Assembly: GCF_000010065.1 (NCBI RefSeq)
Contig: NC_006576.1
Coordinates: 1,770,001 to 1,802,000 of the forward strand
Source: Synechococcus elongatus PCC 6301
GTDB lineage: Bacteria; Cyanobacteriota; Cyanobacteriia; Synechococcales; Synechococcaceae
Direction of reading: 5' to 3'
DNA: 32,000 nt
Part shown: piece by piece, positions 4,048 to 20,052 of the stretch
How positions within the stretch are numbered: position 1 is the stretch's first letter
How the letters are laid out: each line of letters starts with the position of its first letter
The notes under the pieces: model-generated
What the model saw: the letters and a program-made list of their open reading frames with translations, nothing else
Told to the model about the DNA's origin: nothing
Databases searched by the model: none
Translations under genes and position numbers: made by a program

Positions 4048-5481
4048 ATGAATCAGAAGCTGAGTCGGTACCCTAAATCCTCTTGGGCTTATGTGGTGAT
4101 CGCTTGTCCGATCGCGATCGCGCTAATTTTCAGCAGCCCTGTCAAAGCGAAGCTACCGCTGGGCGATCGCCTGACCTGGGGAAATGCCGTCACAGAAACT
4201 AGCCCTGCTTACCGACAGGCACTCAACCAAGCGAAGACCTTTCGGATGCCGGCTGAATTTGAACCGATCACCTCAATTTGGATGGCCTATCCAACCTACG
4301 AAAACCAGGCGGGTTATCCTTCTCAGACTGTTCAGAAGGCGATGGTAAAAGCGATCGCACCAACAGTCAAAATTGACTTTCTTCTGAATGAACCTGAAGA
4401 AAAAGTGATCATCAATGGTTGGCTCAAAACCGCAGGGATTCCAGCTAGTCAAGTCCGCTATCATTTGGTTCCCCATGAGGATCTCTGGATTCGAGATATG
4501 GGGCCAATCTTTGCGGTAAATGCTGATCAAACTCAAGTCGTTGATTTTGGTTTTAATGCTTGGAGTTATCTCGCAGCAACTGATCCAGCAGCAATGACAG
4601 ATGAACAGGTTGATCGCAAGGTCGCTGGTGATCTTGATCTTCCTATCTTGCGATCGAGCTTGATTAGTGAGGGTGGTAATCGGGAATTTAATGGTAAAGG
4701 CACATTGATGCTGACCGAAGCCGTTGAGCTACAGCGCAATCCAGGACTAACTAAGGAGAAGATTGAAACTGAACTCAAACGAGTCTTCAATCTCAAGAAA
4801 GTGATTTGGCTTCAGGAAGGTGTAATTGACGATGAACTGTCTTATCGTGGCAAGTTGCCAGATGGGAGCCTGACAGTGCTTGCAACGGGTGGTCATATTG
4901 ATGAGTATGCGCGGTTTGTTGATTCAAATACAATTTTATTGGCGGAAGTGACCGCAGAAGAAAGAGCTTCCGATCCGCTAGCAGCTATTAATTATCAACG
5001 GCTCGAGGAGAACTTAAAAATTCTGCAGGCTGCGACCGATCAGGATGGCAAGCCCTTCCGAATTGTTCGGATTCCTGCAGCTAAACCCATTTACGTGAAC
5101 ATGACTAAAGAGGATGCTGTCTTTCAAGCTCTGCAAGAACTCACCTTTGAAGATGGAACAGTCATTCAAGATGACGATCAGATCAAAACAATTTTGGCGG
5201 CTAGCTATCTCAACTTTGTGATCGCCAATGATGTTGTGATTGTCCCAAGATACTGGCAGCCCGATCGCAATTTGGAATATCAGCAAAAAGACCAAGCTGC
5301 CTTAGCTGCTTTTCAGTCGGTATTCCCCAACAAAAAGATCGTGGCGATCAATCCGGAAAATATCAATGCTGGGGGTGGGGGTATGCATTGCATCGTTCAG
5401 CAGCAAGCCGTGGTGGATGCAGTAGCTCGATCCCTCAGCACTGGGGCTGGCGATCGATCCAAGAGTAGAAGCAACCTATAA
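4048..5481 (+). CDS. Exported agmatine deiminase / Porphyromonas-type peptidyl-arginine deiminase family protein
   Basis: ATG at 4048 is preferred over TTG at 4027, with GAAGAGG upstream. The N-terminus has a signal-peptide-like segment (SSWAYVVIACPIAIALIFSSPVKA). Family motifs: MPAEFEP..IWMAYP, WIRDMGPIF, EGGNREFNGKGT, and the catalytic-Cys motif GGGGMHCIVQQQ. Confidence 0.8.
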   Translation: MNQKLSRYPKSSWAYVVIACPIAIALIFSSPVKAKLPLGDRLTWGNAVTETSPAYRQALNQAKTFRMPAEFEPITSIWMAYPTYENQAGYPSQTVQKAMVKAIAPTVKIDFLLNEPEEKVIINGWLKTAGIPASQVRYHLVPHEDLWIRDMGPIFAVNADQTQVVDFGFNAWSYLAATDPAAMTDEQVDRKVAGDLDLPILRSSLISEGGNREFNGKGTLMLTEAVELQRNPGLTKEKIETELKRVFNLKKVIWLQEGVIDDELSYRGKLPDGSLTVLATGGHIDEYARFVDSNTILLAEVTAEERASDPLAAINYQRLEENLKILQAATDQDGKPFRIVRIPAAKPIYVNMTKEDAVFQALQELTFEDGTVIQDDDQIKTILAASYLNFVIANDVVIVPRYWQPDRNLEYQQKDQAALAAFQSVFPNKKIVAINPENINAGGGGMHCIVQQQAVVDAVARSLSTGAGDRSKSRSNL

Positions 5482-5603
5482 GAACGCCCATCTAGCCCTC
5501 AGAAGCTTAAGCCGCAACAAGCTTTCGTCATAAACCTTACTCAATATGGGAAGATGACAGGCAGATATTGTGCTTTTTAGTCCCAGCGAAGCTGGATCTG
5601 TCA

Positions 5604-6878
5604 ATGAACCTAAACCTCAGCACTCCGAGTGACGTTATTGTGGCTGAGGCTCTCAAGCGCTTCTCTAAACGAGAACTAGCTAAGCACCTCGGGAAAGATC
5701 CCCGTATCATCACTGCTTTTCAGAGAGACGGAGTGGATGAGACTTACAAAATGGCTCTGCTTTACCTTCTGCAGAGCAACACTCCTCGTCCTAATCAAGG
5801 TAAAAAGCATGACTTTACTTTCATAGATCTGTTTGCTGGTATTGGCGGAACTCGGATGGGTTTCGAACGTGCCGGTGGAAAATGTGTATTCACGTCAGAG
5901 TGGGATACCTCTGCCCAAAAAACCTATCGAGCTAATTTCTCAGTTGATGAGCATCCCATCATCGGTGATATTCACGAGATTACAGTCGAAGGAAAATGGG
6001 ATCTCTTACCAGAGCATGACGTTCTTGTAGCTGGATTCCCTTGTCAGCCGTTTTCTATCGCCGGTGTCAGCAAGAAAAACTCGCTTGGAAGGGCTCATGG
6101 CTTTGCATGTGATGCTCAAGGCACACTCTTTTTTGATATCGCAACCATTATTGAAAGAAGACGACCCAAGGCCTTTTTGTTAGAAAATGTCAAAAACCTA
6201 ATGAGTCATGACAAGGGAAACACTTTTCGTGTTATCAAGAATGTTCTTGAGGATGAGCTTGGCTATAAGATTTACCCAAAAATAATTGATGCAAAAGGGT
6301 TTGTCCCTCAACATAGAGAACGTATCTATATTGTTGGCTTCCGAGAAGAGGTTGGCTTCAACTGGGATTCTTTCTCGCAGCCGCCTACTGATACAAAATG
6401 CATGGCCGACATCCTTCATCCTAATGATGGCAGCGAGGAAGTTGAGGAACCTTATACAGTTGGGATAGAGGCTAAAGTTAATGACAAATATACCCTAAGC
6501 GATAAGCTCTGGAATTACTTGCAAAACTATGCGAATAAACATCGAGCGGCTGGCAACGGCTTTGGTTTTGGTCTTGTCAACAAGGACAGTATTGCCCGGA
6601 CTCTTTCTGCTAGGTACTACAAGGATGGATCTGAGATCTTGGTTGATCAAGGCAAGGATAAGAATCCGCGACGCCTAACCCCTCGAGAATGCGCCCGTTT
6701 AATGGGCTTTGATAGTTCTGAGCATAAGTTCAACATCGTTGTTGCTGACACACCAGCCTACAAACAATTTGGAAACTCAGTTGTAGTACCGGTCATTACT
6801 GAAATTGCTCACACCATGAAGCCGAGCATAATACAACTAAAGGAGAGATATATTCGGCAAATTTCATTAGCCATCTAA
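5604..6878 (+). CDS. DNA (cytosine-5)-methyltransferase, Dcm/EcoRII-SsoII family, with N-terminal HTH-like extension
   Basis: All the m5C methyltransferase motifs are present: I FIDLFAGIGG, IV GFPCQPFS, VI ENVKNL, VIII QHRERIYIVGF, IX RRLTPRECARLMGF, X QFGNSVVVPV. The stretches GVSKKNSLGRAHGFACDAQGTLFFD and RTLSARYYKDGSEIL closely match E. coli Dcm as I recall it. ATG at 5604 is preferred over TTG at 5568. Confidence 0.95.
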   Translation: MNLNLSTPSDVIVAEALKRFSKRELAKHLGKDPRIITAFQRDGVDETYKMALLYLLQSNTPRPNQGKKHDFTFIDLFAGIGGTRMGFERAGGKCVFTSEWDTSAQKTYRANFSVDEHPIIGDIHEITVEGKWDLLPEHDVLVAGFPCQPFSIAGVSKKNSLGRAHGFACDAQGTLFFDIATIIERRRPKAFLLENVKNLMSHDKGNTFRVIKNVLEDELGYKIYPKIIDAKGFVPQHRERIYIVGFREEVGFNWDSFSQPPTDTKCMADILHPNDGSEEVEEPYTVGIEAKVNDKYTLSDKLWNYLQNYANKHRAAGNGFGFGLVNKDSIARTLSARYYKDGSEILVDQGKDKNPRRLTPRECARLMGFDSSEHKFNIVVADTPAYKQFGNSVVVPVITEIAHTMKPSIIQLKERYIRQISLAI

Positions 6879-7074
6879 AAGCTTGATTGTTTATGGCGTT
6901 TTGATATCTGTTGAGCCAAATACTACCATTCAGTTAGTGCGAAAGCATTTTACTGTATACAGACTTGAAAGCTATGTAAAGAAAGTGCCAAAATAAGCCC
7001 AGCAACAATCTAAACGAAATACAAATAACTTCATTGAATAATCATGACCAAAAAGCTTTTGGCAATTTAAACCT

Positions 7075-8163
7075 CTAATTCTCATGACGTTGTAGGTACC
7101 TAGGTAGATTTCCACTGCGAGAGAAGTTACACATGTCGTCAATGAATCTAGATAAAGGACGATAAAGCATATCTTGCCTCCGTGTTGTCTGTATTATGCT
7201 GTTAGCAGATAATGCTTCATAAGTTACATCTGGCATGTATATTGCCAGCGGACCAGCTGCTAGAAGTGTCTGTGTTCGATCTGGATTAAACTCATCGGGA
7301 TCCAAGAAAAAGCCGACTGCAACCTTATCTGGATGGGGAATGTCCTGAATACCTCTTAGCAGTCTTTCTCGAGCCGCATAACTTTTCACTTCGCAGTAAA
7401 GAATTTTTGTAGAATTTTGTGCTCGACATTCTACTTGGAGGTCACCTTCACTGTTATTTCCTGTCTTTTTGAAATTCTGACCCAGAACCATCCCAGCGTT
7501 TTCTAGACCGCGAATGAGTATTTTTTCGTTTATCCCTCCAGCTCTGGAGATAATGCCATTGTCAGACTCATGTACAAAGTCGACATAATTCTCGTAGAGG
7601 GAATTGATTAGTTGATTTTTGGAAACCCTAATCGTTTGCCCATCTTCTTCAAGATAACTCTGAAGAAGCCCCTCGATAAACTTATAGTGCTTCGGCTTCG
7701 TAATAGCATCTATAGTCCGCTTACAATGAGCATTGATTTCGAATAAGTTTTCTCCGGTCACCAAACCAATTTCTGTCTCTGCCAAAGCAACGACTGTCTC
7801 TGCTTTAGGATAAAAGCCAATTATCCTAGGAATATCATTAGGATATTGGTGAAGGTGTTCTCTTAGATAATTATCAACTGTTCCAGGCGTTACCTTGAAG
7901 AGGTTATAGATATCCTCGACATCTATTGCTCCAATATTTTCCGCTAAAAAGCTAGAAATTTCCTCAGAATAATTAACTGGATATACTCCAGTCACTTTGG
8001 CTTTTGCATTCGGATTCGCATCGAGATAGTTCTTTAGATGCTTCCTTACTGTTCCTTGGCTGACATTAAAAAGTTCATAGATATCCTTAGCATGAACAGG
8101 TTCATCATGTGTTCTTAGAAACGTGGCAATTTTTTGTGCATAGTCATAACGAGTTCTAGACAT
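7075..8163 (-). CDS. Putative restriction endonuclease: two tandem HTH-like modules plus a C-terminal PD-(D/E)xK nuclease core
   Basis: Convergent with the methyltransferase gene across a 196-bp AT-rich spacer. Candidate catalytic motif is E199/D241 ... E258-V-K260 (SEGDLQVECRAQNSTKILYCEVKS). Residues ~13-66 and ~68-122 are a clear internal duplication (DIYxLFxVxxGTVxxxLxxxLxxxPN...GxYP). The ORF itself is solid. The nuclease function is an inference. Confidence 0.6.
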   Translation of the reverse strand: MSRTRYDYAQKIATFLRTHDEPVHAKDIYELFNVSQGTVRKHLKNYLDANPNAKAKVTGVYPVNYSEEISSFLAENIGAIDVEDIYNLFKVTPGTVDNYLREHLHQYPNDIPRIIGFYPKAETVVALAETEIGLVTGENLFEINAHCKRTIDAITKPKHYKFIEGLLQSYLEEDGQTIRVSKNQLINSLYENYVDFVHESDNGIISRAGGINEKILIRGLENAGMVLGQNFKKTGNNSEGDLQVECRAQNSTKILYCEVKSYAARERLLRGIQDIPHPDKVAVGFFLDPDEFNPDRTQTLLAAGPLAIYMPDVTYEALSANSIIQTTRRQDMLYRPLSRFIDDMCNFSRSGNLPRYLQRHEN

Positions 8164-8302
8164 ATCTGAGCATTAAAACGTTTGGAAGAGTCTAGGCGCC
8201 AAAAACGGACTTGTCAATGGCTAAGCTAGAACTATTTGAATAGATATCGATTGTCCACTTCACACAACACGAAAGTGCTTGTGGCTTTATCCAATTTAAG
8301 AA

Positions 8303-8426: not shown

Positions 8427-10613
8427 TCAAAGCAGTCCGGGGCGAGCCTGTTGGGCGATCGCTGGTTGTAAGGATCCCCTAAGACTCCAACGCCAAGCTT
8501 GGTGGCGTGTGCGTCCATTGGGCTGCAGGGCTGGGGTGTCGCTTGTATGCATGCCGGTTGGAGCACTACTGCTGCTGATCCAGCCTTGAATCTGGCCGGA
8601 CTGTAACCAGCCCTGAGGGAGGCGATCGCTGGCTGACCAAAGCCAAGTTTGAGGCGGTAACGGCGGCAAATCCTGCGAACTCCAGCGATCGCTGCCGCGT
8701 TGAAATAGCCAGAGCCACTGCTCGCCCTGCCAGCTCAGTTGCCAGAGGTTGGGCGTGCGACTTAGCCACTCTAATTTCAGGTTGGGCCATTGGATCGTTT
8801 GCCCTGGTTGCAGGCTTTGGCTACTGAAAATCTGACGAATCGGCCATTGCTCCTGAACGGTACAGCGATCGCTCAGCTGCAAGACCCAGTCCAGTTGATT
8901 GATGCCCTGTTGTTCTAGGTAAGGCTGGAGATCCCAACGTAAGCTGCGATCGCTCGCTCCGCAGACTAAACCCACCTGACCGCGATCGCGCACGACAGCC
9001 AAGGGTCCATCACTGTTCAAAAACAGAATTTCCTGCTGGGTCGCTGCTTGCGCCAGTCCTGGCAGCAAGACGATCGCAATCAACGCCACGGCCAGCGATC
9101 GCCAGCGGCGGCGCAGTCGAGGCCAAGTCAGCAGCAGTGCATAACTGAGATAGCAGAGCAGCACAACAATCAGCGCAATCTGTCCAGTTGCCCAAGTTGC
9201 CCCAGGCAGATTGGCGATCGTACTGACTAGGCTAATCAGCAGCCAGAGTGGCGCGCTAAGCAGCCAAGCTGCGACACTCCCAAGTGGCAGCCAAATCAGC
9301 GAGAGCAGACCGGCCCATACGCCGCCCATCCCCAAACTTGCTAAGAGCGGTGTGACCAGCACATTCGCGGGAATCGCGTAGGGCGAGAGGGTGCCAAAGG
9401 CGTGCAGTTGTAGCGGTAGCGTCCAGAGTGTGGCGGCCAGTGGCACGGCAATCAGGATGGCCAGTCGAGGGGGTAGCCAGTCCAAGCGATCAGTAATAGG
9501 ACGAACACTGACGACCAGCCCCAAGGTCGCCAGAAAGCTGAACTGAAAGCCGAGATCCTCAATCCAGAGTGGTTGCCAGAGCAGCAGCGCGGTCGCGACC
9601 AGTAACAAGGTCGGTAAGGTCTGGGGCGATCGCTGACGCAACAGTGCCCAGAGCTGAATTTCGCCCATCAAGAACGCCCGCAACAGCGATGCAGAACTGC
9701 CTGCAATGCCGAGAAAACTGATCAGCGTGAGGGTACCGATCGCGGCTTGCCAACGGGGCGAGAGGCCCCGGCAACAGGCCAAGGTCAATCCCAGGAGCAA
9801 GGCTACCTGAAAGCCAGAAGCAGCCGTCGCATGAGCCAAACCACAACGCAGAAAATCCTCAGGAAGGTTGCCTGGTAGTCGTGCCAAGCCGTTGCCAAAG
9901 CTCAGGGCGGCCAGCGCTGAGCCTTGATCGGAACCTAAGCCTTGCTGAAAGGCAGCCAAAATACGGCGACGCACCGGCTCGAGGCTCCAGAGCGGCGGAT
10001 TGTCTTCCTTGAGCAGTTGCCCCCGAAATTCACTAAAAATCGACTGACGTTGGAGATAGCGTTGGCGATCGAAACCGGCAGGATTGCGCGGCGCTTGGAG
10101 CGATCGCAATTCCCCTTCCAACACCACGGTCTGACCGGGTTGTAATCCTGTGACAGCTTGGGTCAAGCGAACCGCAACCTGTCCTTGCAGCCCTTGGCTG
10201 GGGGGCAACCTCAGCTCAGTTTCGGCAGGATTGGGCGACCAGGTTTGCGCCGTCAGCGTGAAGGATTGGCCGTTGGTTTGTAGACGTGGGCGATCGCTGA
10301 TCGTTCCGACTAAAACACCTGACCCTTGATCAGCCCAGCGGCTAATGTCTGTGGCACTCGGTGTCGGTAAGCGTAGGTAAAACCAAAAGCCGGCGGCGTA
10401 AAGCGCGATCGCTGCCCAAAGCCAGAAGCGCAAGGGGATGCGGCGCTGACTTTTGCGGGGCAAGCAGGGATAGCCACCGATCGCGATCGCGGCCCAGAGG
10501 AGGCCAGCAAAGACCCAGCCGACGGGCAAAGGCGACTGGCTGGCGAGAAAGAAGCCCGCGATCGCAAAAGCACAGCAGAGATAGACTGCCGTGGGTGCCA
10601 TGGATCCATCCAC
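8427..10613 (-). CDS. comEC: DNA internalisation competence protein ComEC/Rec2
   Basis: Polytopic membrane protein with the competence-domain signature (FLRCGLAHATAASGFQVALLLG, compare GLxHLLAISGLH). The N-terminus has a DUF4131/OB-like region. The C-terminal ~200 aa resemble a metallo-beta-lactamase fold start (EILFLNSDG...) but lack HxHxDH. Confidence 0.88.
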   Translation of the reverse strand: MDGSMAPTAVYLCCAFAIAGFFLASQSPLPVGWVFAGLLWAAIAIGGYPCLPRKSQRRIPLRFWLWAAIALYAAGFWFYLRLPTPSATDISRWADQGSGVLVGTISDRPRLQTNGQSFTLTAQTWSPNPAETELRLPPSQGLQGQVAVRLTQAVTGLQPGQTVVLEGELRSLQAPRNPAGFDRQRYLQRQSIFSEFRGQLLKEDNPPLWSLEPVRRRILAAFQQGLGSDQGSALAALSFGNGLARLPGNLPEDFLRCGLAHATAASGFQVALLLGLTLACCRGLSPRWQAAIGTLTLISFLGIAGSSASLLRAFLMGEIQLWALLRQRSPQTLPTLLLVATALLLWQPLWIEDLGFQFSFLATLGLVVSVRPITDRLDWLPPRLAILIAVPLAATLWTLPLQLHAFGTLSPYAIPANVLVTPLLASLGMGGVWAGLLSLIWLPLGSVAAWLLSAPLWLLISLVSTIANLPGATWATGQIALIVVLLCYLSYALLLTWPRLRRRWRSLAVALIAIVLLPGLAQAATQQEILFLNSDGPLAVVRDRGQVGLVCGASDRSLRWDLQPYLEQQGINQLDWVLQLSDRCTVQEQWPIRQIFSSQSLQPGQTIQWPNLKLEWLSRTPNLWQLSWQGEQWLWLFQRGSDRWSSQDLPPLPPQTWLWSASDRLPQGWLQSGQIQGWISSSSAPTGMHTSDTPALQPNGRTRHQAWRWSLRGSLQPAIAQQARPGLL

Positions 10614-10666: not shown

Positions 10667-11545
10667 CTAGGCTGTCACTTTTTGCAGCAGTGGAAAGCCC
10701 AACTGCTCGCGCTGTTCCAGATAGAGCTTGGCAACTTGCCGCGCCATATTCCGAATCCGGCCGATGTAGCGCGTTCGCTCCGTCACCGAAATCAGACCGC
10801 GAGCATCTAGCAGGTTGAAGCTGTGGGAACACTTGAGCACGTAATCCAAGCTGGGATGCACCAGCCCCTTCTCAATTAGTTGGGTGGCTTCCTGCTCGTA
10901 AAGACCAAATAACTGGAAGAGCAACTCCGGCGTCGAAGCTTCGAAGTTGTAGGTGCATTGCTCAATCTCGCTTTGCAGATGCACGTCGCCATAGCTGAGG
11001 CGATCGGTCCACTTGATCTCGGTGAAGGCTTCGACGTTTTGCAAATACATCGCCAGCCGTTCCAGACCGTAGGTGATCTCAATCGACACAGGTCGACAGT
11101 CGATGCCGCCGCACTGCTGGAAGTAGGTGAACTGAGCCACCTCCATGCCATCCAGCCAAACTTCCCAGCCGACACCCCAGGCCCCAAGCGTTGGCGACTC
11201 CCAGTTATCTTCGACAAAGCGGATGTCATGTTCCTCGGGCTGAATCCCCAAGGCCCTCAGTGAGTCAAGATAGGTTTCCTGAATCCCTTCTGGTGAGGGC
11301 TTGATCAGCACTTGGTACTGGTAGTAGTGCTGATAGCGATTGGGATTTTCGCCGTAGCGACCATCAGTAGGACGACGACAAGGCTCCACATAAGCCACAG
11401 CCCAAGGCTCAGGCCCGATCGCCCGCAGAAAAGTGTGCGGATTCATGGTGCCGGCCCCTTTTTCGGTGTCGTAGGGCTGGGCAATCAGGCAACCGCGATC
11501 GGCCCAAAATTGGTTGAGCGTGGCAATGACGGATTGAAAGTTCAC
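10667..11545 (-). CDS. glyQ: Glycine--tRNA ligase alpha subunit
   Basis: [41 protein letters not shown]... is a near-universal GlyQ N-terminus. The 292-aa length is typical. Confidence 0.97.
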
Positions 11546-13410: not shown

Positions 13411-13926
13411 ATGGATCTCAAAACCCTGATTCGGGAAATTCCGGATTTTCCCAAACCCGGCATCCTGTTCCGAGACTACACAACGGTGTTGAAGGACCCC
13501 CAGGGTTGGCGCTACAGCATCGATCGTTTGACTGAGTTGATCAAGCCCTTGGAACCGACGGCGATCGTGGGGATTGAGTCGCGGGGTTTCATCCTAGGTG
13601 CGCCCTTGGCCTACCAACTCGGCTTGGGTTTTGTGCCGGTGCGGAAGCCGGGCAAACTGCCTGCTGACACCCACAGCGTCGAGTATGAGCTGGAATACGG
13701 TAGCGATCGCCTCGAAATCCACCAAGATGCTTTGGCTCCGGGCGATCGGGTTGTCGTTGTCGATGACTTAATTGCCACGGGCGGGACTGCCAGTGCTACC
13801 GCCACGTTGATCGATCGCTGCAGCGCGACCTTGGCCGGCTTTGCCTTTGTGATCGAGCTGGAAGGGCTGAATGGCCGCGATCGCCTGCCCGAGGTACCAA
13901 TCATCAGCCTCGTGAGCTACGACTAA
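13411..13926 (+). CDS. apt: Adenine phosphoribosyltransferase
   Basis: [13 protein letters not shown] and the PRPP-binding motif [14 protein letters not shown] are present. The 171-aa length is typical. Confidence 0.95.
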
Positions 13927-13932
13927 GTCGAC

Positions 13933-14928
13933 ATGAGTCGCCGTGCCACCACCCAGTTTTTGCTGCAACGGTTGCTCCAAGCCCTGTTGACGTTGCTGCT
14001 AGCTTCGTTCCTCAGCTTTTGTCTGATCCAGCTGGCACCCGGCGACTATCTCAGTAACCTGCAGCAAAACCCCCAACTGTCTGCTGAACGGATTCAAGAA
14101 CTACGGCAACAATTTGGCCTCGATCGTCCTTGGCTTGAGCAGTATGGACGCTGGCTCTGGCAAGTGGTTCGCTACGGCAACTTTGGCAGCAGTTTTGTCT
14201 ATCAACGACCTGTCGCCGATCTGCTCTGGGAGCGCGTGCCCAACACCTTGCTCTTGGCTATCTGTTCTCTGATCACGACTTGGGCGATCGCCTTGCCGCT
14301 GGGCATTCAGGCCGCCGTTGCTCAAAATCAGCGGAGCGATCGCATCCTGCAACTGATCAGCTATCTTGGGCAGGGAACTCCGAGTTTTATTACAGCGCTG
14401 CTGCTGCTCTTCCTCGCGCAGTTTCTGACGCCGCTGCTGCCGATCGGCGGCATGACTAGCCTCGATTTTGAAGACCTCACGCCCCTGCAACAAATGGCGG
14501 ATTTGGGTCGCCATCTCATCCTGCCGGTCTTAGCGCTTACTCTCTCGGGCTTTGCTAGCCTGCAGCGGATCAGCCGTGGTGAAATGCTCGAGGTGCTGCG
14601 CCAAGACTACATCCGCACCGCCCGTGCCAAAGGCTTGCCGGAGCAGCGCGTCATCTACGTCCACGCTCTACGCAATGCGATCAATCCCCTGATTACGCTC
14701 TTGGGCTTTGAGTTCGCGACCCTGCTCAGCGGCGCTTTTATTGCTGAATATTTCTTTAACTGGCCGGGGCTAGGCCGCTTAATTTTGCAAGCCGTTTTTG
14801 CGCAGGATCTCTACTTGGTAATGGCCAGCTTGATGATGGGTGCTGTGATGCTGATTCTGGGCAATCTGCTCGCAGATCTGCTGCTGCGCTGGGTCGATCC
14901 CCGCATTCGCCTGGATGATCTGAACTAA
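13933..14928 (+). CDS. ABC transporter permease, DppB/OppB (peptide/nickel) type
   Basis: The N-terminus (LLQRLLQALLTLLLASFLSFCLIQLAPGD) and the EAA-loop region (DYIRTARAKGLPEQRVIYVHALRNA) are typical of DppB/OppB permeases. Confidence 0.88.
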   Translation: MSRRATTQFLLQRLLQALLTLLLASFLSFCLIQLAPGDYLSNLQQNPQLSAERIQELRQQFGLDRPWLEQYGRWLWQVVRYGNFGSSFVYQRPVADLLWERVPNTLLLAICSLITTWAIALPLGIQAAVAQNQRSDRILQLISYLGQGTPSFITALLLLFLAQFLTPLLPIGGMTSLDFEDLTPLQQMADLGRHLILPVLALTLSGFASLQRISRGEMLEVLRQDYIRTARAKGLPEQRVIYVHALRNAINPLITLLGFEFATLLSGAFIAEYFFNWPGLGRLILQAVFAQDLYLVMASLMMGAVMLILGNLLADLLLRWVDPRIRLDDLN

Positions 14929-15036: not shown

Positions 15037-16149
15037 TTGACTCTCTGTGCAAATAAAAAGGCGCTTCTCGTGGTCGGCATTTTTTCTAAGTTTCTTGGTG
15101 GCGATCAATCGCGCCTTGGGGTGGAAATTACCCCAGAGCGGATCAATCTTGCCCACATTGGCCGCAAGGGGAATCGCCTGCAGCTTCAGGATTTTGTTTC
15201 CGTGGAGCTACCGGATGGGTTGTTTCAAGACGGGCGCGTGCTAGATAGCTTCAGCCTGTCCGATCTGCTCCGCACCGCCATCAACGACAACCGCATCAGA
15301 ACCAAAAGAGTCTCCACTGCGGTGCCAGGACGAGAGGTGATCACCCGGCTGCTGCCCATGCCCGCGGAGCTCGATGATGCCGAATTGCGCGAGACACTGA
15401 TCAATCAAGAAGCTGCTCTGTTCCTGCCCTTCCCGCGTGAAGAGGCCGACATCGACTATCTGAAACTGGACTATTTTCTGGACGCGGATGAGGTCGAAAA
15501 GTTGCACGTCCTGCTCGTGGCGACTCGTCGGCAGGTGACCGATGTCTACCTTGATCTCTTTGCCCAAGCTGGCCTGACGCCTGACATTGTGGAAGTTGGG
15601 AGCTTTGCGCTAATCCGAACGATTCGCGAAGCGCTGCGCCAGTACGGATTGCAAGAAGCGGTCATTCTCCTCAACGTGGAATATGACCTCACAGAAATCG
15701 TGATTATCGTTGGGGGCGTGCCTCGGTTTAGCCGCACGATCGCCATGGGTACTCAGCAGTGGCAGCGGGCTGCAGCCCAAGCTGGTATCGACAATACAGG
15801 ACGGGGTATTGATTTCCTGCAGGGGCGATCGTTCACATTGCTCGAACCCCCGGCTGATCTCCTCTCTCAAGCTCTGGCACGATCGGTCACCGAGCTCTGT
15901 GATGAAGTACGGCGATCGGCTGACTTCTACCTCAGCCAAGAGACCGATATTGAAGTAGCCAAGCTCTACGTTGCAGGTCCAGGCTCAGCCTTGCCAACAC
16001 TACCCGAGTTTCTGGGGCAACGCCTAGGGCTCCCTGTAGAACTCGTCGATCCTGTCGAGGGGTTGGGGCTCGAGGTGGCGGAGAACCTTTATTTGCCAAA
16101 TCGCGCTGATGTGGGCGTGGTGTTGGGCTTAGCCACGCGAGGAGTATAG
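15037..16149 (+). CDS. pilM: Type IV pilus assembly ATPase-like protein PilM
   Basis: Actin-like PilM fold signature (GVEITPERINLAHIG..., ..LYVAGPGSALP). First gene of pilMNOQ. The start is ambiguous: TTG at 15037 or GTG at 15070. Confidence 0.88.
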   Translation: MTLCANKKALLVVGIFSKFLGGDQSRLGVEITPERINLAHIGRKGNRLQLQDFVSVELPDGLFQDGRVLDSFSLSDLLRTAINDNRIRTKRVSTAVPGREVITRLLPMPAELDDAELRETLINQEAALFLPFPREEADIDYLKLDYFLDADEVEKLHVLLVATRRQVTDVYLDLFAQAGLTPDIVEVGSFALIRTIREALRQYGLQEAVILLNVEYDLTEIVIIVGGVPRFSRTIAMGTQQWQRAAAQAGIDNTGRGIDFLQGRSFTLLEPPADLLSQALARSVTELCDEVRRSADFYLSQETDIEVAKLYVAGPGSALPTLPEFLGQRLGLPVELVDPVEGLGLEVAENLYLPNRADVGVVLGLATRGV

Positions 16150-16151
16150 CG

Positions 16152-16868
16152 GTGTACAGCTTAGACATTAACTTTCTCAAAGAACGGACAACCACAGCGC
16201 CGCCAGTTACCACCTTCGGGACTGCAGCCGTTGCCACTAATCCCTCGGAGCGGCTCCCGCTCTGGATTGGGGTGGGTATCGGCTTGCTTTTGCCTGGGCT
16301 GGCACTCGTGGTTACGGCCTTGGCTAACAATCGGGTTTCGACCCTGACTGCTGACAAGGCCGAACTCGAACAACAAATTCAGCTGGGGCAGCCAGCAGAA
16401 GCCCGCCTCAAGAGCATTCAGGCTGAGATTGAGCAAATCAATACCGACACCACGTCCTTAATTCAGGTCTTCCCGCAGGTCAAATCCTAGTCTGCTATCC
16501 TCACCGACCTGAGTCGACGGACCCCGGTGGCAGTTCAGATCAGCAAGATTGAGCAGGCGGGCAAGAAGGTCACCCTACAGGGCAGTTCTTCTAACTACGA
16601 CTCGGTCAATGACCTGCTGCTGACCTTGCAGCAGTCGCGTTTCTTTACAGCTAGCAGCCTGCGGATTGAAGAGGCGAAATTAGGCGCTACCCCTACTCAA
16701 AATACAGGGGAGAACAGTCCTAAGCTGTCGAATGTGAACTATCGCATTGTCGGTGAGCTCAGCGACGTTCCCACGACGGATCTCTTGCAAAATCTCCGTC
16801 AGCTCGATGCTCAAGGTCTTGCTGCTCGCCTGCAGGGATTAGTGAACCAAGGGGTACTGAAGCCATGA
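16152..16868 (+). pseudogene. pilN: pilN interrupted by an in-frame TAG (16488-16490); appears as two ORFs, 16152-16490 and 16527-16868
   Basis: Both ORFs are in the same frame (16152 and 16527 are both divisible by 3). The N-terminal part has the PilN signature (LDINFLKER plus a TM helix and coiled coil). The C-terminal part continues a PilN periplasmic domain. Reading through gives ...VFPQVKS*SAILTDLSRRTPVAVQISKIEQ, where orthologues have a Trp as I recall. Confidence 0.8.
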
Positions 16869-17659
16869 CTGTCTCGCTGAGTAAATTCCCGGATGATGAA
16901 CCCGAGGTTCTCGCATCCAATTACCCAACGGTTTTTGGGCTGACAATTACACCCCTCGTGGGTGGAATTCTAGCGGCGATCGCAGGGTTGGCAGGCGCTG
17001 GCTGGATTTTTCTCAATCTTGTTCAGCCAACTCAAGAGCAGGCTAATCAGCTGACCCAGGAAGTTAATGACCTCCGCGCTCGGGCTGAACAGCAAGCCGC
17101 TAGCCTGCGCCAAATTGGCGCTCAGCAGCAACAGTTAGCCAATGCTCGAGCCCAACAGCGTGTGGTGCAAAGCTTCTTTGCATCGCCCGCCACCTTAGAT
17201 ACGCTGTTGCTCGACATCGATGGCCAAGTAAGGCGGGTGGCTGGCTTGCAGCTGCAGTCCTACTTGCCGAAGGAGTCGGCGATTGTGACCGATGGGTCGC
17301 TCGGTGAAGGCGTCAACAACAAACTGAAGCAAACCCCCGTGTTTGTCGAGGTGAGTGGCAGTTTCAACCAAACTGTGTCCCTACTGCGGGGACTCGAACA
17401 GTTGCAACCGCTGTTATTGGTGCGAGACATTGTCGTGACGGCAGAGCCGGTGCCGGTCACGGTCACGCCGAGGGGGCAAATCTTGGCGCGGCCAGCCCCC
17501 AAGCTGACGACACAGTTCAATATTGTGGCGCTGAGTCCCTTGACGCCCGAAGAACAGAAGCAGGTTGAAGAGGCTGCTGCTGCCGCTGCGAAAAATAATC
17601 CAGGAGGAGGTGCGAACCCAGGAGGAGGAACGGGCAACGCAGGTCAGTCGGGTCAGTAA
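16865..17659 (+). CDS. pilO: Type IV pilus assembly protein PilO
   Basis: ATGA start/stop overlap with pilN at 16865-16868. It has a single N-terminal TM helix, a coiled coil (QEQANQLTQEVNDLRARAEQQ) and a PilO-like domain, plus a Gly/Pro/Ala-rich tail. Confidence 0.85.
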   Translation: MTVSLSKFPDDEPEVLASNYPTVFGLTITPLVGGILAAIAGLAGAGWIFLNLVQPTQEQANQLTQEVNDLRARAEQQAASLRQIGAQQQQLANARAQQRVVQSFFASPATLDTLLLDIDGQVRRVAGLQLQSYLPKESAIVTDGSLGEGVNNKLKQTPVFVEVSGSFNQTVSLLRGLEQLQPLLLVRDIVVTAEPVPVTVTPRGQILARPAPKLTTQFNIVALSPLTPEEQKQVEEAAAAAAKNNPGGGANPGGGTGNAGQSGQ

Positions 17660-17736: not shown

Positions 17737-20052
17737 ATGCAAGCTTGGAAAATTTTGGGGAGTGGATTGGTTCTTGGAACTGCCGCGATCGCGGGGCAGC
17801 CATCACCAGTCTGGGCCCAAGCCGCATCGACCATCGCGGCAAATCCGTCGGCAACGGAAGTCAATCGGGTTTTGGTGACGCCGACAACGAATGGCATTAG
17901 CCTGTCTTTGAGTACAACGGGTACTCAGGCACCACAAGCCTTTTCAACTAATCTCGATAAGGTCTGGGTGACGGATCTGATCGGCGCTCGCCTCAATCTG
18001 CCGGAGGGTAAGAGCTTTACTCAGCCGAACCCGGTACCTGGGATCGAGTCGATCGCAGTTTCCCAAGTGAGTGAAAACGGCGTTCGGATCGTTGTGACCG
18101 GTAGCGATCGCCCGCCGATTGTGACTAACAGCAGTCGGAATGGTGGGAGCTTGCAGTTTGAACTCAGTACTCAGACTGCGATCGCAGCCGCACCTAGCCC
18201 CAGTGCTCCACTAGTCGGTGCTGCTCCCCGACCCAACCTGCGTCCCCCTGCGGCCCCGGCCCCGCAGCGGACTGCCCAAGCGACGCCCCCGACGCCAATT
18301 CCAGTCAGCCCAGCACCACAGCCGCCGGTCCAACCCCTAGACCCTCGGCAAGTACTGCAACCGACGCCATCCCCTGCGCCAGGACAACTCCCTCCCCTCC
18401 AGCCTCGGGCCGTTGCACCGCCTTTGGGTGATATTGCGATCTCCAACACAGTGCCCCAAGGCACTGCTGTCACCTTCCCGAATGCGCGTCCCGTCCCTCG
18501 CATTGCCTTGCGTAATGCTTCCGCGCGGGAAGTACTCAGCATCATTGCAACGTCTGCTGGGTTAAACCTTGTCTATCTTGATAGCAACGGCCAGCCAACT
18601 GCTGCGGCCCCAGTGGTTAGTAATGAGCCGAAAGTGAGTGTTGATCTGCAAAATATTGATGCTCAGTCAGCCTTTAACTACGTTCTTCAGATTGCTGGGT
18701 TGCAGGCTAGCCGTCGCGATAATGTCATTCTGGTCGGGAGAAACCTGCCGCCCTCTGCTGGTGGGTTAGTTTCCCGGACTTTCCGCCTCAACCAAGCAGT
18801 CGCTCAAAACGTAGCGGGCTATCTCACGACTTTAGGGGCTAACTCAGTCGTTTCCTTTACTAAAAAAGTCTGTGTCTCGACTGGTGTGCAGGATACAACT
18901 GCAACAGGTGGCGGCGCGGGCACTGGCGCAGGACAAGGTCAGATTCAAACCCTCAGTCAGACTTCGGCTCAATGTTTTGATGAGCCGGAAGTCAAGGAGC
19001 TCAAAGTTCCTGGCACTCCAGCCGGCCCATTACCCCTCAAAAACATTTCAATCACCGCAGATATTCGAACGAACAGCCTCTCAATCGTGGGCGATCCCCA
19101 AGCAATCAACTTTGCGACAGGTTTAATTCAACAGCTTGACCTTCGAAAAAGACAAGCTTCAGTCAATGTTAAGGTTATTGACCTTGACTTGAATGACCTC
19201 AATGCGATCGCGACTAGTTTCTCCTTTGGAATTGGCAACACCCTATTCTCGGGAAGTGGCGGTCTGAGAACGACCGTAATTGATAATGCGGGCTCAGTGA
19301 TCCAGCCCCCAAATGACAGTGTCTTTAACCCCAGTAACTTACCAGCAGGGATTAACCCAGCGAATCCCTTGTTGGCCTTGCCGAATCAATTGACCAATAA
19401 TTTCCTTGGTGCTTTATCTGCATCAATTATCAACAACAAAACTAAGTTGCTGACTGACCCCACCTTAATCATTCAGGAAGGAGAAAGAAGCGAAGTCAAA
19501 CTGACTAGTCAGGTTGTTCAAAAGATTGAATCAGAGACTACAACCAACGGCAGTGGCCCGCCAACCGTTAGCCGAACCATTGACCTTGCAGATGTTGGTC
19601 TACAGTTAACCATCAACATTGAACGAATTGATGACAATGGCTTCATTACTCTCACAGTCTTGCCAGCCATTTCATCGCCACAAGATGTTGTGACTTTTGG
19701 TGATCCCAACACCAATGGTGTCTTGACAACCCTGATTAAGAAGCGGGAGGTTTCATCGGGCAAAATTCGCTTGAGAGACAGTCAAACGCTCATTCTGTCG
19801 GGGATCATCCAAGATGAAGAGCGGGAGCGAGTTGCTAAGATTCCTCTCCTGGGAGATTTGCCACTGATCGGTTCCCTCTTTCGCACCTCTTATACCGATC
19901 GCCAGCGGCGAGAAGTTGTGGTGGTGATTACACCGAAGATTTTGGCCGATACGGATGCCACGGTCTTCGGCTATGGCTATCAGCCCAGCCCCCCTGCTCA
20001 ATCAGTGCTGAACAACACGTTGCAAACTCCCACGGTCGCTCCGCTGCCCTAG
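17737..20052 (+). CDS. pilQ: Type IV pilus secretin PilQ
   Basis: ATG at 17737 gives a clean signal peptide (MQAWKILGSGLVLGTAAIAGQPSPVWAQ). An alternative GTG lies at 17716. The C-terminal secretin domain carries IPLLGDLPLIGSLFR. A Pro-rich linker follows the N-terminal AMIN-like domain. Confidence 0.93.
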   Translation: MQAWKILGSGLVLGTAAIAGQPSPVWAQAASTIAANPSATEVNRVLVTPTTNGISLSLSTTGTQAPQAFSTNLDKVWVTDLIGARLNLPEGKSFTQPNPVPGIESIAVSQVSENGVRIVVTGSDRPPIVTNSSRNGGSLQFELSTQTAIAAAPSPSAPLVGAAPRPNLRPPAAPAPQRTAQATPPTPIPVSPAPQPPVQPLDPRQVLQPTPSPAPGQLPPLQPRAVAPPLGDIAISNTVPQGTAVTFPNARPVPRIALRNASAREVLSIIATSAGLNLVYLDSNGQPTAAAPVVSNEPKVSVDLQNIDAQSAFNYVLQIAGLQASRRDNVILVGRNLPPSAGGLVSRTFRLNQAVAQNVAGYLTTLGANSVVSFTKKVCVSTGVQDTTATGGGAGTGAGQGQIQTLSQTSAQCFDEPEVKELKVPGTPAGPLPLKNISITADIRTNSLSIVGDPQAINFATGLIQQLDLRKRQASVNVKVIDLDLNDLNAIATSFSFGIGNTLFSGSGGLRTTVIDNAGSVIQPPNDSVFNPSNLPAGINPANPLLALPNQLTNNFLGALSASIINNKTKLLTDPTLIIQEGERSEVKLTSQVVQKIESETTTNGSGPPTVSRTIDLADVGLQLTINIERIDDNGFITLTVLPAISSPQDVVTFGDPNTNGVLTTLIKKREVSSGKIRLRDSQTLILSGIIQDEERERVAKIPLLGDLPLIGSLFRTSYTDRQRREVVVVITPKILADTDATVFGYGYQPSPPAQSVLNNTLQTPTVAPLP

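Follow-up and report, generated by a model that had tools for sequence, protein, structure and literature searches.

In other PilN proteins, PilM is bound by the N-terminal peptide, and in other systems the periplasmic ferredoxin-like domain of the protein pairs with PilO. In Synechococcus elongatus, pilN is also the site of a described lesion. UTEX 2973 was isolated from the stock PCC 6301 (UTEX 625), as reported by Adomako 2022 (PMC9239245), and its pilN SNP is listed by Yu 2015 with the entry ‘STOP 113 Q’ (PMC5389031). According to reviews that describe the work of Li 2018, expression of PCC 7942 pilN in UTEX 2973 brings natural transformation back at low efficiency (PMC7690421, PMC6567925), and in a paper from 2026, editing of the pilN locus is reported to have made a strain (WTR-pilNm) naturally competent again (PMC13398943). 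Adomako 2022 also describes an inactivating pilN mutation that is common to PCC 6301, PCC 6311 and UTEX 2973, terms this lesion a ‘frameshift’ and cites early papers in which some transformation of PCC 6301 was obtained (PMC9239245).

The window, meaning the whole stretch of 32,000 nucleotides of PCC 6301 DNA that was analysed, contains a pilMNOQ cluster in which pilN is present in two pieces. The features of the cluster are the following.

15070–16149, plus strand: pilM, annotated as 359 aa in sister genomes, with the longest open reading frame starting from TTG 15037; Pfam PilM_2, E = 1.2e-41.
16152–16490, plus strand: 5′ fragment of pilN, 112 codons and TAG, covering the conserved N-terminus, a hydrophobic helix and a long helical stalk.
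16488–16490, plus strand: premature amber codon TAG (W113*), in which the derived base is the A at 16489.
16491–16868, plus strand: 3′ remainder of pilN, containing the annotated open reading frame 16527–16868 (113 aa) and the periplasmic ferredoxin-like core domain.
16865–17659, plus strand: pilO, 264 aa; its Pfam matches (T2SSM_b and PilO) are weak and lie below threshold.
17737–20052, plus strand: pilQ secretin, annotated as 771 aa in sister genomes, with the longest open reading frame starting from GTG 17716; Pfam AMIN, STN, Secretin_N and Secretin.

The two pilN open reading frames, 16152–16490 and 16527–16868, lie on the plus strand in the same frame and are divided by the TAG at 16488–16490. 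The first starts with GTG at 16152 and is terminated by this TAG after 112 codons, 12 sense codons (16491–16526) follow before the next GTG, and the second runs from that GTG at 16527 over 113 codons to the TGA at 16866–16868; in the window, a frame of about 238 codons is therefore interrupted at codon 113. The pilM stop codon (16147–16149) is located 2 nt upstream of the pilN start, and the pilO ATG at 16865 shares an ATGA with the pilN TGA. The coordinates, the shared frame, the TAG with its 12 sense codons, the 2-nt gap and the ATGA overlap all agree with the original prediction, which had been made from the letters of the sequence. The length and position of pilM equal those in UTEX 3055, UTEX 2973 and PCC 7942-type loci, the pilQ gene call is identical in sister loci, and the PilO of the window is exactly BAD79845.1 (syc1655_d of PCC 6301) and carries a window-private D119. 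A scan for promoters and terminators across the cluster gave counts that were not above those in shuffled sequence.

The read-through product of the two pilN pieces scores 48.2 bits against Pfam PilN (PF05137), for which the cut-off is 22.8 bits, and the 3′ open reading frame alone (113 aa) scores 36.1 bits (E = 6.5e-9), which argues that the pair of reading frames has not arisen by chance. The gene order on the one strand, PilM_2, PilN, a gene that is PilO-like by sub-threshold Pfam matches only, and a Secretin gene, is the genomic context of a PilN. An intact comEC-type gene (8427–10613, minus strand; Pfam Competence and DUF4131; 724–728 aa), equal in length to its counterparts in sister strains, lies 5.5 kb upstream of pilN. 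The region thus brings together two components of the machinery for DNA uptake, and of the two only pilN is broken.

A protein search retrieved 209 relatives of PilN, the closest being the 238-aa S. elongatus PilN, and once one residue is restored, the read-through product and the PilN of other S. elongatus strains agree at all 238 aa. In a scan of one genome per species, the read-through protein had full-length matches of 30–38% identity at 80 cyanobacterial loci; S. elongatus itself was not among these 80, probably because the region is masked in the representative genome. Residues M1–R12 are invariant or near-invariant among homologues. Over the 121 full-length cyanobacterial homologues retrieved, the column aligned with residue 113 holds Trp in 120, and Ser114 and Ala115 that follow are invariant, with the PilN of PCC 7942 (Gln) the sole protein without Trp. 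The original prediction had placed a conserved Trp at the position of the stop, and had allowed that orthologues might also be organised as two genes; the Trp is there as it had proposed, and none of the 121 homologues is split.

Comparison with individual strains identifies the base changes at this codon. The wild isolate UTEX 3055 has the same protein as the read-through product, with Trp at residue 113 (WP_126147403.1). Its pilN (CP033061), together with that of five further contigs, differs from the pilN of the window at 8 of 717 nt, of which seven are synonymous and the eighth is a G in place of the A at 16489 (TGG vs TAG); the surrounding DNA of UTEX 3055 is about 97.3% identical to the window and its pilN is intact. 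The functional PilN of PCC 7942 (ABB58482.1, 238 aa) is the same protein except at codon 113, where CAG (Gln) stands in place of the TAG of the window, and CAG is likewise found in the PCC 7942-type loci (L100, L101). The flanking 20.7 kb of PCC 7942 equals the window except at the window-private sites and a 243-bp indel, so that the only non-private differences between the window and PCC 7942-type loci are T vs C at 16488 and this indel. The pilN allele of UTEX 2973 (CP006471, position 733938; AJD58864.1 and AJD58865.1) has the identical TAG and the identical 112-aa and 113-aa products. The 112-aa product exactly matches BAD79843.1, AJD58864.1 and UOW74999.1 and is also recorded as MBD2587203.1, and the 113-aa product is the same as BAD79844.1 and AJD58865.1, with one of the neighbouring accessions labelled PCC6311_2544. 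The TAG at codon 113, combined with a locus identity above 99.9%, places the window in the PCC 6301/PCC 6311/UTEX 2973 allele group.

These comparisons support, with a probability of roughly 93%, the reading that the split pilN results from one nonsense mutation, Trp113 (TGG) to amber (TAG), within an otherwise complete pilMNOQ type IV pilus cluster, that the allele is common to the PCC 6301/PCC 6311/UTEX 2973 group and that pilN is inactivated by it. The G-to-A change at 16489 that the original prediction had proposed describes the difference from UTEX 3055 (TGG), but not that from PCC 7942, whose codon at 16488–16490, the comparison it had pointed to, is CAG (Gln) and differs by T vs C at 16488. 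The lesion is a single-base nonsense substitution without an indel, and the published term ‘frameshift’ is read as loose wording. The entry ‘STOP 113 Q’ of Yu 2015 is explained by the CAG/Gln at codon 113 of PCC 7942; it is correct relative to that strain, but hides the wild-type residue, Trp.

The lesion is real and biologically meaningful, yet the mutation had already been published and is rediscovered here. That the loss of competence in UTEX 2973 is due to a pilN point mutation had been put forward in the original prediction, and the literature agrees, since competence comes back with an intact pilN or with native repair (PMC5389031, PMC7690421, PMC6567925, PMC13398943). The split gene accounts for the failure of naked DNA to transform PCC 6301 or UTEX 2973, a fast-growing production strain. 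This obstacle to transformation is a practical one that has already been diagnosed and repaired by the field, so the split pilN itself adds nothing new.

Three alleles are found at codon 113, and their distribution among strains bears on the origin of the functional pilN in PCC 7942.

TGG (Trp): wild isolate UTEX 3055; Trp, encoded by TGG alone, is shared by a further 119 homologues.
TAG (stop): this window, UTEX 2973 and resequenced PCC 6301.
CAG (Gln): PCC 7942-type loci.

The A at 16489 is present in all laboratory strains and absent from the outgroup UTEX 3055, which argues that it arose on the common stem of the laboratory strains. The C at 16488 is confined to PCC 7942, with T in the other laboratory strains and in UTEX 3055, which argues that it arose in the PCC 7942 lineage. 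On this base-by-base comparison with the outgroup, the ancestor of the laboratory strains would have carried T-A-G. The functional pilN of PCC 7942 (Gln113, CAG) is therefore likely to be a pseudo-revertant of the amber allele, following the path TGG to TAG to CAG, in which the ancestor of the legacy strains would already have been without pilN and a T-to-C change, one of the two transitions that turn TAG into a sense codon, would have occurred in the PCC 7942/7943 lineage. This path takes two changes, while histories in which that ancestor had CAG or TGG take three changes in the one codon; according to Adomako 2022, the total of differing sites among the genomes of the laboratory strains is only about 120 (PMC9239245). 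Transformation experiments recover competent cells only, which makes selection for such a reversion easy to imagine, and the selection of transformants may itself have singled out the T-to-C change; a similar selection is argued for rpaA-Q121 clones in the Adomako 2022 mBio paper (PMC9239245).

The opposite direction, in which CAG (Gln113) was the codon of the laboratory-strain ancestor, the PCC 6301 lineage gained the stop by C-to-T at 16488 (Q113*) and PCC 7942 is not a revertant, is unlikely, although the published table, with PCC 7942 as reference, gives the SNP in this direction (PMC5389031) and CAG to TAG is a single transition. It takes three changes in one codon rather than two, because TGG to CAG alone takes two before CAG changes to TAG, and it requires that Gln had displaced the Trp found in 120 of 121 homologues and that one of the approximately 120 differences reported among laboratory strains (PMC9239245) then hit this same codon by coincidence. 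The individual bases also speak against Q113*: T at 16488 is common to the window, UTEX 2973, PCC 6301 and the outgroup UTEX 3055, marking the C of PCC 7942 as derived, and A at 16489 occurs in all laboratory strains and is missing from the outgroup.

If PCC 7942 is indeed a pseudo-revertant, the laboratory lineage lost competence a single time and PCC 7942 recovered it; the transformability of this strain would be owed to a secondary repair that places Gln at an otherwise invariant Trp position. The PilN of PCC 7942 may then be only partly functional, and repair to Trp113 might outperform, in pilus function or transformation, the Gln allele with which complementation has been done. No statement of a pseudo-reversion in PCC 7942 was found in the searchable literature; the primary papers on pilN repair lie outside that scope, and a prior mention is possible. 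The data hint at this origin of the PCC 7942 allele as the one new point at the locus, and it is the sole part that is worth following up.

What the stop would remove can be judged from an AlphaFold2 model of PilN, built from a 50-sequence alignment with a modest mean pLDDT of 64.8. In the model, residues 1–34 have no regular structure, a long helix extends over residues 35–123 and opens with the hydrophobic stretch LPLWIGVGIGLLLPGLALVVTALA (residues 35–58 are hydrophobic), and a β-β-α-β-β core follows after residue 128, with block-mean pLDDT values of 80–95 over approximately residues 111–180. The best Foldseek matches to the core are the periplasmic ferredoxin-like domains of EpsL, PulL, XcpY, PulM and PilO (E ~1e-3, target TM 0.54–0.75), while PDB chains searched by sequence, whether the query was the single protein or the 50-sequence profile, gave coiled-coil noise only. 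PilN thus has a bitopic architecture, consisting of a conserved N-terminal peptide, one membrane helix, a stalk and a ferredoxin-like periplasmic domain. In the model, codon 113 lies directly ahead of the periplasmic domain, which is modelled with confidence; the stop would thus remove this domain entirely and leave the N-terminal peptide and the membrane helix together with most of the stalk.

A mechanism for the defect can be proposed by analogy with PilM/N/O systems, in which case the N-terminus of the PilN encoded here would bind PilM and its periplasmic domain would form a heterodimer with PilO. The 112-residue N-terminal fragment would keep its conserved cytoplasmic end, its one membrane helix and the greater part of the helical stalk, and would lose everything from the W-S-A motif onward, including the periplasmic ferredoxin-like domain. 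Such a fragment may still bind PilM but would not pair with PilO, and the PilMNO alignment complex, which links the inner-membrane platform to PilQ, would fail to form. Pilus assembly and pilus-dependent DNA uptake would be expected to fail as a consequence, and the strain would not be naturally transformable. We infer the exact molecular defect along these lines. In addition, ribosomes that halt 375 nt before the pilO start may reduce the translation of pilO, a polar effect that is suspected because the ATGA overlap suggests translational coupling. The low efficiency of the rescue by pilN in trans suggests that pilN may not be the only lesion, or that expression level or polarity may matter, and a polar effect on pilO could contribute to it.

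Residual function, either from a split PilN with both halves cooperating or from low-level read-through of the UAG, is very improbable. Both open reading frames are intact and annotated as separate proteins, and the early reports of PCC 6301 transformation, as cited in PMC9239245, are not obviously explained by a fully null allele. However, the product of the 3′ open reading frame has neither a membrane helix nor a signal peptide and should stay in the cytoplasm; it could thus not reach the periplasm, and the two halves would be unable to reconstitute PilN. By inspection there is also no obvious ribosome-binding site before GTG 16527, homologues are unsplit throughout the 121, and UTEX 2973 is not naturally transformable until it is given an intact pilN. 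That the TAG is a sequencing or assembly error, a possibility the original prediction had left room for, is scarcely credible: the record is error-rich, with seven private substitutions in 20.3 kb (six of them nonsynonymous) that fit the error load reported for PCC 6301 in PMC9239245, but the TAG is not private to the window, recurs in CP006471 (UTEX 2973), CP085785 (resequenced PCC 6301) and the assembled contigs of seven or more different runs (SRR63347xx), independent assemblies by which such an error is refuted, and has a published, complemented phenotype.

With the nonsense mutation standing as the preferred reading of the split gene, the rest of the locus shows how the window relates to other records. 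Against UTEX 2973 (CP006471), the window has seven substitutions and one single-base indel, a G in apt that the window is without, over 20.3 kb (99.96% identity); against resequenced PCC 6301 (CP085785), it differs at those 8 sites and in a 243-bp segment (99.94–99.96% identity). The sequence of the window is therefore not that of CP006471. The suggestion in the original prediction that the window derives from the UTEX 2973 lineage is right as to the shared mutation and the parental lineage, PCC 6301, but the DNA is not UTEX 2973 itself, given these differences, which are private to the window. With its PilO an exact match to BAD79845.1, including the private D119, the window most likely represents the original record of the PCC 6301 genome.

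The seven private substitutions, defined as differing from the UTEX 2973, resequenced PCC 6301, PCC 7942-type and UTEX 3055 sequences, are transitions at 11137, 17219, 17531, 20694, 20792, 21528 and 22095. Six of the seven are nonsynonymous: GlyQ T137A, which sits in the motif LDGMEVTQFTYFQ, PilO N119D, peroxiredoxin K56E and F23S, and T346I and E157G in an HflX-like GTPase. GlyQ T137A and peroxiredoxin F23S fall in what we take to be conserved motifs. According to PMC9239245, the original PCC 6301 sequence contains more than 1,000 apparent SNPs and indels, mostly sequencing errors. The density and character of the private substitutions fit this published error load, and they look like sequencing errors of the original PCC 6301 record rather than biology.

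Strains also differ elsewhere in the window. A 243-bp segment (13878–14120), which runs from the last part of apt into the beginning of an ABC-transporter permease gene, is present in the window, UTEX 2973 and UTEX 3055 and deleted in PCC 7942-type loci and resequenced PCC 6301; in PCC 7942-type loci the deletion creates an in-frame apt-permease fusion of 424 aa. The ends of the deletion, GGCCG/CGATCGCC and GGCCT/CGATCGTC, are a HIP1 octamer (GCGATCGC) and a HIP1-like core, and HIP1-flanked deletions have previously been described in PCC 6301. An extra G at 13770/13771 (ACTTAGATTGCC vs ACTTAATTGCC) frameshifts apt (13411–13926) and is carried by UTEX 2973, resequenced PCC 6301 and one read assembly (L093), being absent from the window, UTEX 3055 and PCC 7942-type loci. 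All four combinations of the extra G and the 243-bp deletion exist, which implies that one of the two events has recurred, or that the error-prone record is wrong at the apt site. The repeated changes in apt could reflect selection against apt in culture.

A further segment of about 2.9 kb (5419–8294), where UTEX 3055 has only about 73 bp, is present in every laboratory-strain locus examined and contains two genes.

5568–6878, plus strand: C-5 cytosine DNA methylase gene.
7075–8163, minus strand: gene of 362 aa with an N-terminal HTH.

This segment may be a small mobile or restriction-modification-type island that is specific to the laboratory lineage.

In relation to described systems, the read-through PilN of the window has the same bitopic layout as PilN/GspL-type proteins, including PilN/PilO of P. 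aeruginosa, EpsL of Vibrio and PulL/PulM of Klebsiella, and its gene stands in the order pilM-pilN-pilO-pilQ. The solved structures of PilN/GspL-type proteins have no detectable sequence similarity to cyanobacterial PilN and match it by fold only, and cyanobacterial PilN differs from these proteins in having an extra helical extension at its C-terminus.
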